Source: a virus. Taken from it: a stretch of DNA of 64,000 bases. Of the stretch, positions 1 to 35,870 are shown piece by piece. Made by a program: the position numbers and the translations under genes. Each line of letters opens with the position of its first letter. The first letter of the stretch is position 1. The notes under the pieces were generated by a model that worked only from the letters and a program-made list of their open reading frames with translations, was not told the origin of the DNA and did no database searches. The stretch is from the UHGV virus genome UHGV-0125821; one strand, given 5' to 3'.

Positions 1-85
1 GCAAAGACTTTAAACCTCGTTACGGCTGGCGTGGCAAACGCGACAACCGAGACAGAGCGGTGACGGGCGGAGAGAGTGCCGCATC

Positions 86-162
86 AAGAAAGAAGCCGAC
101 TTGTGATCCCTTTCAGCGGGCATTTGAAAGTGAATCTAGCTCAGGCAGTCGGCTTCTTTCTT
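86..162. repeat. perfect 15-bp inverted repeat around a 47-nt loop
   Basis: AAGAAAGAAGCCGAC at 86-100 and GTCGGCTTCTTTCTT at 148-162, read directly. Confidence 0.6.
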
Positions 163-182
163 GTGTGAGATGTAGCGTATTT

Positions 183-207
183 GCCCATCTTCGGGTGGGC
201 TTTTTTA
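183..207 (+). terminator. intrinsic terminator
   Basis: GC hairpin GCCCA..TGGGC followed by TTTTTT; lies inside track ORF 60..245. Confidence 0.55.
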
Positions 208-379
208 GGGTTTTCGTCATGGTTAGCGACTTTGCGGCGGTTTAGAAACCGACCATTAAAGTAAATGCAAACGATGATCTGATGATGGTAGCGGCCTAAG
301 AAGCCTGACGCCACGGGGTATGAGTCGTCCCCCGTCAAAAAATCGACCGCAGAGTGTCCCCGTCTGTGTATTAGGGAAC

Positions 380-477
380 GGGGAGGCATAACAGGCAAGG
401 GCGCTGGTGTGATTAACCAGATGAATGAGAAGGGTCAGGTCTTTCTGGTCAGCGCCCTTACCTGTTACGTCCCTCCC
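380..477. repeat. 98-nt imperfect palindrome (about 28 paired positions, ~39-nt loop)
   Basis: GGGGAGGCATAACAGGCAAGGGCGCTGG pairs with CAGCGCCCTTACCTGTTACGTCCCTCCC with 3-4 mismatches. Confidence 0.45.
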
Positions 478-666
478 GCGTAATAGCCATTGCTTAATGG
501 CATCCTGGGGGAATTTCTTGTAACGGGTATATCCCGTCATGCTGAAGGCGCTAATCACGCTGGAAGCCAGGGTTATGCATCCCCTGTTACTGAATTGCAG
601 CCAGGGCGCGGTGCGCCGAAAAGCATACGGAGGTGGAAGCCCTCGCCGGAGACGTACCCGGCAAGT

Positions 667-742
667 GATGGTGTAGCTCAGCGGTTAGAGCGGTTGACTG
701 TTAATCAACGGGTCGATGGTTCAAATCCATCCACCATCGCCA
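667..742 (+). tRNA. tRNA-Asn (anticodon GTT)
   Basis: hand-folded cloverleaf: acceptor GATGGTG/CACCATC, anticodon loop CTGTTAA, T-loop TTCAAAT, encoded CCA. Confidence 0.85.
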
Positions 743-744
743 AT

Positions 745-820
745 GCCGGTTTAGCTCAGTTGGTAGAGCGCCTGCCTTGTAAGCAGGATGTCAGCGGTTC
801 GAGTCCGTTAACCGGCACCA
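745..820 (+). tRNA. tRNA-Thr (anticodon TGT)
   Basis: acceptor GCCGGTT/AACCGGC, D-loop AGTTGGTA, anticodon loop CTTGTAA, T-loop TTCGAGT, encoded CCA; 2 nt after tRNA-Asn. Confidence 0.85.
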
Positions 821-828
821 ACACAACA

Positions 829-902
829 GGTAAGGGTATTTTGCGACGTCGGAGATCGCCGTGCTTGGCAGAGGGTTCGAATCCCTACGAAGTACCCTTA
901 CC
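829..902 (+). ncRNA. tRNA-like element that does not fold as a canonical tRNA
   Basis: 10-bp terminal stem GGTAAGGGTA/TACCCTTACC enclosing GGTTCGAATCC T-arm-like motif; no cloverleaf register fits. Confidence 0.3.
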
Positions 903-1241
903 GTTGTGATGAAGTGCAGCTCTTTGAAGCAACCAGAAGATAAGCATCTGGCTTCACAACATAAACCGCAGGAACGACCAATAAACGGTAGTCCGTATGG
1001 AGAACACCCCGTTGAGGAAGAGGCCTGGCCGGAACCGTAACCGGCACTACAACGTTAAGAACACTGGCGTAACGGGGTCATATCCCAATCTATGAATAAA
1101 TGTTGCGTTGCAGCGTGACAACCAGTGTTCTCAACATTGTGGTGAATGCACAGGCTGATGTGCCGCAACTACAGTAGTGCGCGCTTTGCGGGGCTTGCTA
1201 CAACCCTGTGTCGGAGTTCAGCACCGACCATCACAATCACT

Positions 1242-1328
1242 GGAGAGTAGGGAGCATGGTGCTCAAACGGTCTTGAAAACCGTCCCATTGCGCAAGCGAT
1301 GATGGTTCGATTCCATTACTCTCCGCCA
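1242..1328 (+). tRNA. class-II tRNA-like, Ser(TGA)-like anticodon arm, atypical D-arm
   Basis: acceptor GGAGAGT/ACTCTCC plus G plus CCA; anticodon arm ACGGT-CTTGAAA-ACCGT; variable hairpin with GCAA loop; D-loop only 5 nt. Confidence 0.4.
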
Positions 1329-1591
1329 GTGCAACGTTAAGAGTATTTGGCTAATTAAGCGAATGCCGGAAGCAGAACCGGATCACCAAATGCGTACAGG
1401 CGTCATCGCCGCCCAGCCAGCCAAGTGCTCTTACCATTGCGGTGAATGCGGTTAAGCGCACGCGGAACAGTTAAAACAATCCTCCTTAGTGGTTAAGTCA
1501 AACATCCCGGCGTTAATTGTTAACTGGTTAACGTCACCTGGAGGCACCAGGCACCGCAGCTTTTTTATTCGTTAAATAATGGAGTGAGAGG

Positions 1592-1828
1592 ATGCAGAAC
1601 AATCCGAACAAATGTCGAACGCTATGGGTGCGGTTATATATTTATGTCGCCCTCTGTTTGATTGTGTCACTGGTTCTGTATGTTTGGCTTTTGCCAAATA
1701 TGATCTCATCTGACAGCACAATACTTGTATTGTTGGGAGTCCTTCTCGCGCTCATTTACCCGGCTTTTGCAGTAGTCTTTTTTCGTGAAAAAACCAGGAA
1801 ATTGATTAATGAAAAAAACGTTGATTAG
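1592..1828 (+). CDS. small membrane protein with two predicted TM helices
   Basis: hydrophobic 78-aa ORF, SD-like GGAGTGAGAGG before ATG, overlaps start of SPFH gene. Confidence 0.5.
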   Translation: MQNNPNKCRTLWVRLYIYVALCLIVSLVLYVWLLPNMISSDSTILVLLGVLLALIYPAFAVVFFREKTRKLINEKNVD

Positions 1829-2615
1829 TGCAGCGATTATTTTTGGTTCTTTATGTCTGACCGGATGCGACCGGGTAGAACCAGGCAATGTAGGGATCAA
1901 AGTAAATAAGCTGGGGGATGATAAAGGTGTCGGCGAAGTAGTTGGCGTTGGTCGCTACTGGACAGGCTGGAACACAGAAGTTTATATCTTCCCGACCTTT
2001 AAGCAAATGAAGACCTATGATGATCCGTTCAGCTTCCAAATGAGCGACGGGACAACAATTGGTTACCACATTGGTGTAGCTTACAAGGTTGATCCGGCAA
2101 AAGTCACAACTGTATTTCAGACCTACCGCAAAGGCGTGGATGACATTACCGACACTGACCTGCGCCAGAAGATCGCCGATGCACTCAACCGACTGGCCAG
2201 CAAAATGACCACCGATAAGTTTATCGACGGTGGTAAGTCTGAACTGCTGGATTCAGCACTTAAAGATATTCAGGAAGAGATGACCCCCATCGGCATTCAG
2301 GTCATGAGCCTCTCTTATGTCGGTAAACCGGAATATCCGCCAACCGTTATCGACAGCATTAATGCAAAAGTCACGGCGAACCAGAAAACTCTGCAACGCG
2401 AAGCAGAAGCCAACATGCTGCGCGCAGAAGCTGCCGGACAGGCCGATGCCATTCGCACAAAAGCCCAGGCTGAAGCTGATGCCATTCGTTTACGCGGTGA
2501 GGCTCTGCGCCAGAACCCCGGCGTTATGGAGTTGGAAGCGATCAACAAATGGAACGGAACGCTACCGCAGTATATGACCAGTAATACCGCTGTTCCGTTT
2601 GTTCCGGTGAAATAA
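1809..2615 (+). CDS. SPFH/band-7 (prohibitin-like) lipoprotein
   Basis: lipobox LTGC after N-terminal signal; SPFH-type core and Ala/Glu-rich coiled-coil tail. Confidence 0.8.
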   Translation: MKKTLISAAIIFGSLCLTGCDRVEPGNVGIKVNKLGDDKGVGEVVGVGRYWTGWNTEVYIFPTFKQMKTYDDPFSFQMSDGTTIGYHIGVAYKVDPAKVTTVFQTYRKGVDDITDTDLRQKIADALNRLASKMTTDKFIDGGKSELLDSALKDIQEEMTPIGIQVMSLSYVGKPEYPPTVIDSINAKVTANQKTLQREAEANMLRAEAAGQADAIRTKAQAEADAIRLRGEALRQNPGVMELEAINKWNGTLPQYMTSNTAVPFVPVK

Positions 2616-2628
2616 CCAAATAGATAAC

Positions 2629-2760
2629 ATGATGGAATTTTGGACGTTTGCCGACAAGAACCCTTGGTGGACATTTTTATTTCTGCTGGTGGTTGCATAT
2701 GGGGTCGAGCAAGCAGCAAAAGCCTTACGCGGTCCTGGCAAAAAGCGTAAGCGGAATTAA
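2629..2760 (+). CDS. 43-aa membrane peptide with basic C-terminus
   Basis: MMEFWTFADKNPWWTFLFLLVVAYGV...KKRKRN; below track size cut-off, no clear SD. Confidence 0.3.
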   Translation: MMEFWTFADKNPWWTFLFLLVVAYGVEQAAKALRGPGKKRKRN

Positions 2761-2769
2761 CAGTAATCT

Positions 2770-2845
2770 GGCCCTTTAGCTCAGTGGTTAGAGCAGGCGA
2801 CTCATAATCGCACGGTCACCGGTTCAAATCCGGTAGGGGCCACCA
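2770..2845 (+). tRNA. tRNA with CAT anticodon, ileX-like (Ile2 lysidine type) or Met
   Basis: acceptor GGCCCTT/AGGGGCC, anticodon loop CTCATAA, T-loop TTCAAAT, CCA; resembles enterobacterial ileX from memory. Confidence 0.8.
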
Positions 2846-3300
2846 TATTTGGTTGTAACACGGCGTCTGGCACATGCGTCGTTAGCGGTCTGGTGACGTT
2901 AAAAGGGGTATCTTTGACTCTTGCTTAGGCAAACGGACCAGGTAGCCGGAATGTGCAAGCCCCGGTAACAGTGGCGGACCGAGGACTCACCATCCTGGCG
3001 ATTCGGTGTGACAGCCGGAAGAGCACGGCGCACAACAGGAAAAGGCGTTTAATTAGCGTGAGCGCCGTTTCCGTTGTGGTAATTGCGGCTATGCGCTCGT
3101 GACGAAGCCATTTTCATTCACTACGTTCTGATAAGTGACGTCGCCAGGAGTGGCTAACCTGGCAGGTGGAGGCACCACCGCCACAACTCCTTTCAATTCA
3201 TCATATAGCCGCTCAGGCTGTACCCCTTAATTAATACGAAGTTACGACATCACTACCGGTACTTCCGGGGGATAGTCGCGCGTGTAAAAAAGGAGACGTT

Positions 3301-35826: not shown

Positions 35827-35870
35827 CCATTTGTGTTAGATAATTAATATGTATTTTCTAACACAAATGG
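35827..35870. promoter_or_regulatory. palindromic operator pair
   Basis: CCATTTGTGTTAGA, 16-bp spacer, TCTAACACAAATGG; ends 7 bp before rdgC ATG. Confidence 0.55.

Follow-up and report, generated by a model that had tools for sequence, protein, structure and literature searches.

A long perfect hairpin and an intrinsic terminator bracket a cargo slot in the tRNA leader of a D6-type phage-plasmid

What does a perfect inverted repeat followed by an intrinsic terminator do in the DNA of a phage-plasmid? The question is raised by positions 86–207 of a 64,000-nucleotide (nt) stretch of the virus genome UHGV-0125821 (the window, meaning the whole stretch that was analysed), the first 700 nt of which match the P1-like plasmid prophage Escherichia phage D6 at 99.1% identity. 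An earlier note, made from the letters of this DNA, offered two answers: an elaborate 3′ end of an upstream operon, or a small structured RNA. Our analysis reveals that the hairpin and the terminator are two separable modules inside a long non-coding leader that continues into tRNA genes. The reading that we favour, and in which our confidence is evenly poised, is that they serve as a stem for processing or insulation and as a leaky terminator, in a leader RNA that is probably under repressor control and that supplies tRNA genes lacking their own promoter.

The stem-loop is real, very stable, and far beyond chance. The 15-mer AAGAAAGAAGCCGAC at 86–100 has its exact reverse complement at 148–162, as the earlier note had recorded with slight understatement: one extra pair at each end makes the repeat perfect over 17 base pairs (bp; 85–101 with 147–163), with a loop of 45 nt. 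Past a bulged U84, four more pairs (80–83 with 164–167) lengthen the helix to approximately 21 bp, and the minimum free energy is −34.7 kcal/mol for 85–163 and −40.6 kcal/mol for 79–168. The 17-bp repeat is the longest perfect inverted repeat of the window (the runner-up has 14 bp); a repeat of this length was reached in 0 of 60 shuffles and has an analytic expectation of ~6e-4. With 17 perfect pairs and 4 beyond a 1-nt bulge, the stem has the size of an RNase III substrate (~20 bp or more of double-stranded RNA). The G+C-rich hairpin and T6 tract that had been noticed after the repeat are located at 183–206, beyond a 19-nt spacer (164–182). The terminator stem comprises 7 pairs, 5 of them G-C, and carries a UUCG tetraloop closed by a C-G pair, with a folding free energy of approximately −12 kcal/mol; the G+C-rich stem, the short loop, and the U-tract directly after it are the sequence characters of a Rho-independent terminator, predicted to function in the plus-strand orientation only. 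The features of this part of the leader are as follows.

1–66, plus strand: 3′ part of a conserved non-coding leader motif that runs ~60 nt further left in D6, with no D6 gene annotated and no open reading frame (ORF) conserved
67–82, plus strand: small hairpin GCGG-AGAGAGUG-CCGC directly before the long hairpin, all 4 pairs invariant in 11 variants
85–101, plus strand: 5′ arm of the 17-bp repeat (extended helix from 80), invariant in D6-type relatives, with 2 positions that change together with their partners in plasmids of the CP104667 type
102–146, plus strand: 45-nt loop, with an inner bulged hairpin (105–114 with 126–136) and a single-stranded tail that includes TAGCTCAGG (137–145)
147–163, plus strand: 3′ arm of the 17-bp repeat (extended helix to 167)
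164–182, plus strand: linker UGUGAGAUGUAGCGUAUUU, 19 nt, a nearly empty "cargo slot" between hairpin and terminator
183–206, plus strand: intrinsic terminator GCCCAUC-UUCG-GGUGGGC followed by U6 (stem 183–189 with 194–200, T6 201–206)

Pattern scans of IMG/VR and BLAST searches of plasmids and complete E. coli genomes locate the hairpin in D6-type phage-plasmids only. In particular, it is present in 98 of 5,426 complete E. coli genomes, on plasmids only, in one copy per plasmid and with zero chromosomal copies, which rules out a miniature inverted-repeat transposable element or other dispersed palindromic repeat; the flanks (GCAT and TGTG) form no target-site duplication around the hairpin. 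Among 11 distinct variants, 16 of the 45 loop columns are variable, versus 5 of the 34 stem columns. All 5 stem changes occur in one lineage (the CP104667 type), and 4 of them make up two compensatory pairs (A-U to U-A, and G-C to A-U); the inner pair 108/133 is C.A in 7 variants, U-A in 3, and C-G in 1. These patterns provide moderate evidence, limited by a shallow phylogeny, that pairing of the hairpin is under selection.

The hairpin is a lineage-specific structural module, neither a gene nor a tRNA. The ORF at 60–245, which runs through both structures and was already suspected of being spurious, is not real: neither it nor its longer D6 version has a Pfam match, its frame contains 3 stops in CP104667-type relatives, and it crosses a T-run that is T6, T7, or T8 among P1-like phages and that shifts the frame by an indel in P1. 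A frame entering from the left edge does stop at 61–63, and it is open for just 21 codons in D6. Neither ARAGORN nor the Rfam tRNA model identifies a tRNA in 86–207, and Rfam searches of the same interval at gathering and permissive thresholds return only sub-threshold microRNA-like, MicA, and STnc240 matches, attributable to a generic hairpin or terminator. The tRNA D-loop-like TAGCTCAGG pointed out in the loop is present at 137–145, but its first T is private to the window (D6 and most relatives read CAGCTCAGG, others CAGTTCAGG, CAACTCAGG, or TTGCTCAGG), so the resemblance is not conserved; with no cloverleaf detected, we rejected a tRNA reading of 86–207.

The terminator hairpin is present in 117 of the 120 copies that we recovered of the conserved block at 207–300 (113 P1/D6-like viral contigs, P1, D6, the CP104667 plasmid, and the window); the only substitutions in it, T188C and C200T, preserve wobble pairing, and the tail ranges from T6 to T8. 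The pairing is kept in all P1- and D6-type copies examined. P1, P7, SJ46, and similar phages align with the window only from position 180 on, at ~91% identity, and P1-type homology thus begins exactly at the terminator. In P1, the terminator is present, the inverted repeat and the whole 1–179 sequence are absent, and a "dicF-like" segment stands in place of the hairpin; D6-type relatives keep the repeat. In CP104667-type plasmids, the hairpin is followed by P1's dicF-like segment (~120 extra nt, inserted at the linker) and then by the terminator. In a third lineage, the conserved block downstream is present and the terminator is missing. A Pantoea P1-like plasmid (L004) shares the upstream motif and the small hairpin (~82% over 114 nt), followed by a long hairpin of the canonical family described below, a tRNA-like gene, and a terminator. 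The Pantoea tRNA-like gene (45 bits with the Rfam tRNA model, negative with ARAGORN) starts with GTGATGTAGCTCAG in the same place as the linker 164–182 and is followed by TTTGCCCATT...AATGGGCATTTTTT, the terminator there opening with an identical TTTGCCCAT. Because the combinations of hairpin and terminator differ by lineage (P1, CP104667 type, Pantoea), the two are separable modules bracketing a slot whose cargo depends on the lineage and which is almost empty here (164–182). The AUGUAGC of the linker resembles the start of the Pantoea tRNA-like gene and might be a vestige of one, a resemblance that is only suggestive.

Extending the window leftward by way of D6, as the earlier note had proposed, places the nearest upstream gene, pmgS-like, with its end ~570 nt left of window position 1. 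From this gene to tRNA-Asn, D6 has no annotated gene, only scattered ORFs of 85 amino acids or less in the upstream stretch, and the D6 stretch left of the window contains a sigma-70-like promoter and further hairpins. Given an upstream gap of this length with a promoter-like site of its own, the hairpin and the terminator lie inside a long non-coding leader that continues into the tRNA genes, and not at the 3′ end of an operon. The RNAs of the window comprise tRNA-Asn, tRNA-Thr, tRNA-Ser, a tRNA with a CAU anticodon, C4 RNA, and isrK RNA. In the P1 record (NC_005856), the same terminator closes a feature annotated "dicF-like region", ~150 nt downstream of promoter Pban, which is controlled by the C1 operators Obanab; the gene upstream of the terminator there is dmt, a different gene from that of D6, and no further promoter is annotated between Pban and trnA, trnT, tciABC, trnI, and ban. 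This synteny establishes the D6-lineage region as the counterpart of the P1 leader that runs from Pban through the "dicF-like" segment to the tRNA genes.

The window itself has no sigma-70-like promoter on either strand of 1–3000. The only sigma-70-like site of the D6 leader, TTGATT-17-TAGAAT (D6, L001 5467–5495), is positioned ~600 nt upstream of the hairpin. The sequence GTGTTAGAAA adjoins this site and occurs again 100 nt downstream (D6, L001 5436 and 5590), and a perfect inverted pair of it is present there in the CP104667 type. In the window, GTGTTAGAAA occurs at 11 sites, versus 3.9 expected, including two inverted pairs, 22 nt apart, one of which belongs to a 14-bp inverted repeat at 35827–35870.

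GTGTTAGAAA sites: window 4290, 8723, 10134, 20631/20653, 24875, 25534, 27241, 35833/35855, 45759

By comparison with P1, in which C1 operators are scattered, GTGTTAGAAA is probably the operator of a D6-type C1 repressor, differing from P1's ATTGCTCTAATAAATTT, and, if so, the leader is probably repressor-controlled like Pban. We infer rightward (plus-strand) transcription from the orientation of the terminator, the plus-strand tRNAs, and the plus-strand neighbouring hairpins. Because no promoter was detected for the tRNA genes themselves, 460 nt downstream, the terminator must either leak or be overridden; the same is already implied for P1, in which Pban controls ban, 2.6 kb downstream. The earlier note would have taken transcripts reading through as a refutation, which appears too strict: partial read-through is to be expected by analogy with P1, since its terminator sits between C1-controlled Pban and the genes that Pban controls (the tRNAs and ban).

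In the mechanism that we propose, transcription would start at the sigma-70-type promoter located ~600 nt upstream in D6 and flanked by GTGTTAGAAA. The hairpin would fold co-transcriptionally, insulating the adjacent RNA modules, and the two turns of double-stranded RNA in its stem would offer a possible RNase III cut site. The terminator would stop part of the polymerases, yielding a short leader RNA and metering read-through into the tRNA cassette array, and it would serve as the conserved right boundary of the cargo slot, in which P1 carries a dicF-like RNA, Pantoea a tRNA-like gene, and the present phage nothing.

The slot that the hairpin occupies is filled by other long hairpins elsewhere. 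The window contains five more long plus-strand hairpins (387–469, 819–932, 1045–1169, 1327–1465, and 3028–3102), which belong to a canonical family with the base CACAAC(A)GG-U-AAGAGCA ... UGCUCUUUCCGUUGUGGUGAAUGC, hypervariable loops, and a small trailing hairpin GCGCAGGCUGAUGCGC; the conserved base of the window copies can also be written CACAAC...GUUGUGGUGAAUGC. An IMG/VR scan with CCRTTGYGGTGAATGC returned at least 120 loci, mostly on lambdoid or P22-like contigs of 30–60 kb. Lambdoid, P22-like, and P1-like phages supply at least 52 distinct inserts of the family, in which the arms are conserved and the hypervariable loops measure 33–178 nt. In a 44-member alignment, 96.6% of the cells are paired, 11 pairs show double-sided changes, a bulged A and an internal mismatch are conserved, and a U.G pair is kept in 29 of the 44 members; no shuffle equals these values. 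Because U.G pairs make sense on the sense strand only, the canonical hairpins are a plus-strand (sense-strand) RNA structure, and no Rfam family covers them. The concept of boundary sequences reportedly comes from the HK620 genome paper. In phage CUS-3, the matching DNA, located between the genes for the Q antiterminator and the holin, bears the annotation "bsq3/bsq4; boundary sequence". Boundary sequences have been put forward as recombination linkers for lambdoid mosaicism (PMC3029335).

The finding's hairpin is not a member of this family by sequence or by structure model; we file it as a positional equivalent, a lineage-specific occupant of the slot. Specifically, it lacks the CACAAC...GUUGUGG base, the GGUGAAUGC tail, and the trailing small hairpin, and its resemblance is partial only (CAAGAAAGAAG versus CAACAGGUAAG, and UUGUGUGAGAUG versus UUGUGGUGAAUG); a profile hidden Markov model of the canonical small hairpin plus 5′ arm finds window 3009–3038 and misses 60–100. 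Its position is that of a canonical hairpin: just as the small hairpin 67–82 precedes 85–163, homologous small hairpins, with GGAGAGA or GGAAGAGA as the loop, stand before the canonical long hairpin in Pantoea, in several Klebsiella-type phages, and at 3009–3102 of the window (small hairpin 3009–3030). The D6 leader motif aligns with that of Pantoea through the small hairpin, and in all other lineages that carry the upstream motif a small GGAGAGA- or GGAAGAGA-loop hairpin is followed, directly or one module later, by a canonical long hairpin. A scan of genome contigs with CGGTGACGN{3,4}GGAGAGA, an unspecific pattern, gave random matches in unrelated phyla only.

The leader motif itself is present in ~35 non-D6 viral contigs and, in addition to the Pantoea plasmid, matches Klebsiella phage Kp4865-1 (L005; ~80% over 76 nt). 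It is common to many phage contigs of ~40 kb (window 1–75; L004 2440–2568; L005 2470–2560; L276 ~2200–2350). A Klebsiella phage that has the module chain following the motif, and that matches this part of Kp4865-1 and not the motif, carries the chain in an early-operon leader between a helix-turn-helix regulator gene and an exonuclease gene. We rejected an HK022 put-type antiterminator as an identity for the upstream motif, since no similarity was found in the right-hand half of HK022 (20,000–40,751), where put is unannotated.

Further observations concern the canonical hairpins and the tRNA region. Hairpin 819–932 has in its loop a perfect T-arm of a tRNA (GAGGGUUCGAAUCCCUA) and a hairpin resembling an anticodon arm, with no tRNA called, and T-arm-like hairpins occur in at least 7 of the 52 loops of the family; P1 annotates the DNA matching 819–932 as a minus-strand gene, plp, overlapping trnT. 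A 16S-rRNA-like fragment (ttatcagctagatggtgaggtaatggctcaccatggcgacgacgggtag) is located just 3′ of a canonical hairpin in several phages and matches small-subunit rRNA (L091 624–670 and L098 1953–1999, both lambdoid contigs). Within window 1136–1240, UUGUGGUG, which follows hairpin 1045–1144, can pair with CAUCACAAU just before tRNA-Ser; the pairing would close a second domain holding GCACAGGCUGAUGUGC and GUCGGAGUUCAGCACCGAC, and this long-range pairing is found again in the leaders of lambdoid phages, as GUUGUGGUG with either CGCCACAAC or CACCACAAU. The tRNA-Ser (UGA anticodon, 1242–1328) has its best clan match to Rfam tRNA-Sec (45.1 bits; gathering score 47), and the D6 record leaves its amino acid unassigned by tRNAscan-SE. 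Directly after a canonical hairpin, window 1438–1558 gives a partial Rfam STnc100 match (39.5 bits, gathering score 47, model positions 31–147) and ends in a terminator-like GCUUUUUUAUU; an STnc100-like element also precedes tciA in P1, and it attains the gathering score in the CP104667 plasmid. At 1592–2760, the window departs from D6, the tciA/tciB of D6 and P1 being replaced by three ORFs that encode a 78-amino-acid hydrophobic protein, a 268-amino-acid SPFH/Band_7 lipoprotein-like protein (Pfam E = 3e-30), and a 43-amino-acid protein.

Immediately right of the terminator, 207–300 is the most conserved stretch of the region, with one difference from P1 between flanks that are ~91% identical. 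Positions 267–299, GCAAACGATGATCTGATGATGGTAGCGGCCTAA (GCA AAC GAT GAT CTG ATG ATG GTA GCG GCC TAA), read ANDDLMMVAA* after an A-rich UAAAU lead-in, a frame that bears a striking resemblance in sequence to the tag frames of transfer-messenger RNA (tmRNA). The frame is identical in 114 of the 120 copies found, the other 6 having synonymous changes only, among copies retrieved with a search pattern that admitted synonymous variants only. Apparent identities of 10–11 nt between the leader and E. coli tmRNA were judged to be due to chance, ~0.1–0.5 being expected and their order being inconsistent between phages.

Several points weigh against a processing stem and leaky terminator in a repressor-controlled leader. 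The hairpin has little phylogenetic depth: the CP104667-type lineage alone is the source of the two compensatory changes, and its fifth stem change makes a G.G mismatch. In addition, DNA-level processes can also keep the arms of a perfect repeat identical. The hairpin carries no strand signal, the inner-helix C.A of 7 of the 11 variants being a G.U on the minus strand; the minus-strand fold is ~2 kcal/mol more stable in 6 of the 11 variants, and the energies differ by only ~2 kcal/mol either way. The putative promoter and operator were assigned by consensus, in the genome of a relative and beyond the limits of the window. Position is the sole argument for homology of the hairpin to the canonical family: with a covariance model (R1) built from 44 canonical sequences, which scores the five window copies at 25.9–53.4 bits, the scores of the finding's hairpin are 8.4 bits (plus strand, E = 2) and 9.7 bits (minus strand, E = 1), and those in D6 are similar. 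A search of the accessible literature returned no expression, end-mapping, or cleavage data for D6 or P1, and nothing usable on P1's dicF-like region or on the bsq elements.

Of the two answers that the earlier note had offered, the small structured RNA stays live, the structures being real and conserved in relatives. A rival reading, unlikely in our estimate, is a trans-acting small RNA (sRNA). Cleavage of the stem would free an RNA of ~45 nt (~164–206) with the single-stranded UGUGAGAUGUAGCGUAUUU as its seed and with the terminator, together with its U-tail and the UAUUU directly ahead of it, as an Hfq-type 3′ module, the D6 seed differing from the P1 "dicF-like" seed as in AgvB and AsxR. 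This would fit the conserved terminator beside an upstream segment that varies between D6 and P1, the "dicF-like" label that P1 annotators gave to the equivalent segment, and the presence in lambdoid phages, at the corresponding moron site 3′ of PR′, of prophage anti-sRNAs of similar architecture (51–60 nt, with a conserved ~42-nt 3′ terminator region and variable 5′ ends; PMC4104026). However, DicF (RF00039) has no match at E ≤ 10 in window 1–700 or in the P1 "dicF-like region" (L002 4937–5038), AgvB scores 13.3 bits against a gathering score of 56, no promoter is located close upstream, no target was identified, and in CP104667-type relatives the linker is not next to the terminator, so the putative seed is not kept beside its 3′ module. 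We consider unlikely that the repeat is a DNA-level element only, either a recombination linker of the "boundary sequence" kind or a cruciform-prone palindrome at a mosaic junction, with the terminator inherited from a P1-type module on the right. The break in P1/D6 homology at 180, immediately right of the repeat, is where such an element would be expected, the matching hairpin arms in CUS-3 carry the annotation "bsq; boundary sequence" and are covered by the recombination-linker proposal (PMC3029335), and the perfect identity of the arms is what DNA-level homogenisation would give. Yet the canonical relatives show sense-strand RNA evidence (conserved U.G pairs, the bulge, and 11 covarying pairs), the finding's own loop evolves faster than its stem, in which changes are compensated, and the repeat is single-copy and hence has no recombination partner within its genome.

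The other answer of the earlier note, the 3′-end structure of an upstream morphogenetic (pmgS-like) operon, is very unlikely: a strong plus-strand terminator does stand downstream of, and on the same strand as, the pmgS-like gene, but ~750 nt of structured non-coding sequence, with a promoter-like site and hairpins, separate the gene's stop from the terminator, and the same terminator in P1 follows a different gene (dmt) and Pban. The ANDDLMMVAA* frame also brings to mind a tmRNA-like gene, degenerate or permuted, which is extremely improbable and for 86–207 already largely refuted. In its favour, Rfam tmRNA_permuted matches 194–299 weakly (24.1 bits, E = 0.007 in a 700-nt search), ARAGORN calls the tag at an 80% threshold, and the block is nearly invariant in 120 copies; against it, the score is under the gathering score of 47, ARAGORN calls nothing at the default or 90% threshold and places the 80% call beside four unrelated ones, the 267–299 block has a tag-like frame with no tRNA-like domain found, and a BLAST search of E. 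coli genomes with the Pantoea version of the upstream leader motif does not retrieve ssrA. A broader and distinctly doubtful idea is that phages share a widespread, undescribed class of RNA scaffolds, of which the hairpin would be a diverged member and in which conserved closing stems, the "boundary sequences" of DNA annotators, display hypervariable loops that act in trans. If it were true, some loops would mimic stable RNAs of the host (tRNA T-arms here, with a 16S-rRNA-like fragment just 3′ of some hairpins), and loops freed by leader processing would, for instance, bind RNases, toxins, or sRNAs of the host as decoys or sponges. The 45-nt loop would then be a D6-specific effector and the invariant tmRNA-tag-like block another.

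Among known systems, the Pban leader of P1 shares with the processing stem and leaky terminator that we favour its genomic slot, its terminator (~91% identity from 180), its location upstream of trnA(Asn)-trnT(Thr), and a promoter that in the D6 type is probably likewise repressor-controlled. It differs in that P1 lacks the repeat and the 1–179 sequence, whereas the D6 type lacks the dicF-like segment; neither matches Rfam DicF. The bsq hairpins of lambdoid late leaders (bsq3/bsq4 of CUS-3) likewise have a long stem and a variable loop of ~45–55 nt, follow a small hairpin, and are located near terminators and tRNA genes, whereas the finding lacks their CACAAC(A)GG-U-AAGAGCA / UGCUCUUUCCGUUGUGGUGAAUGC base, bulged A, internal mismatch, and trailing GCGCAGGCUGAUGCGC hairpin. 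The 6S RNA of lambda at tR′ and StxS of Stx phages are short leader RNAs that end at a terminator just after a regulated phage promoter; the arrangement of promoter, short structured RNA, intrinsic terminator, and downstream genes dependent on read-through is the same, but those systems use a Q antiterminator, whereas in D6 read-through is inferred only, and we know of no Q-like factor for P1 or D6. RNase III processing stems include the sites in T7 early mRNA, which have internal loops and much smaller apical regions, and the stems of rRNA operons; the finding resembles them in placing approximately two turns of nearly perfect double-stranded RNA in a polycistronic transcript that is non-coding or contains tRNAs, cleavage here being predicted. 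AgvB and AsxR are also phage-borne, occupy a leader moron site, and combine a conserved, terminator-containing 3′ part with a variable 5′ part, but they are primary transcripts of 51–60 nt antisense to the late operon and match the present element neither in sequence nor by model (PMC4104026).

Taken alone, the feature represents a modest gain in annotation, namely an unannotated structured leader plus terminator in D6-type phage-plasmids and the removal of one spurious ORF; the surrounding hairpin family is a more interesting lead than the finding itself. Small hairpins with a GGAGAGA loop, long hairpins with a CACAAC/GUUGUGG base and a hypervariable loop, terminators, and tRNA cassettes are RNA building blocks common to the tRNA region of the P1 family and to the Q-to-lysis leader that lambdoid and P22-like phages carry. 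The canonical hairpins, with clear RNA covariation and absent from Rfam, were earlier discussed only as DNA "boundary sequences", and the comparison makes an old question testable, whether boundary sequences are recombination linkers, RNA processing or insulation signals, or both.

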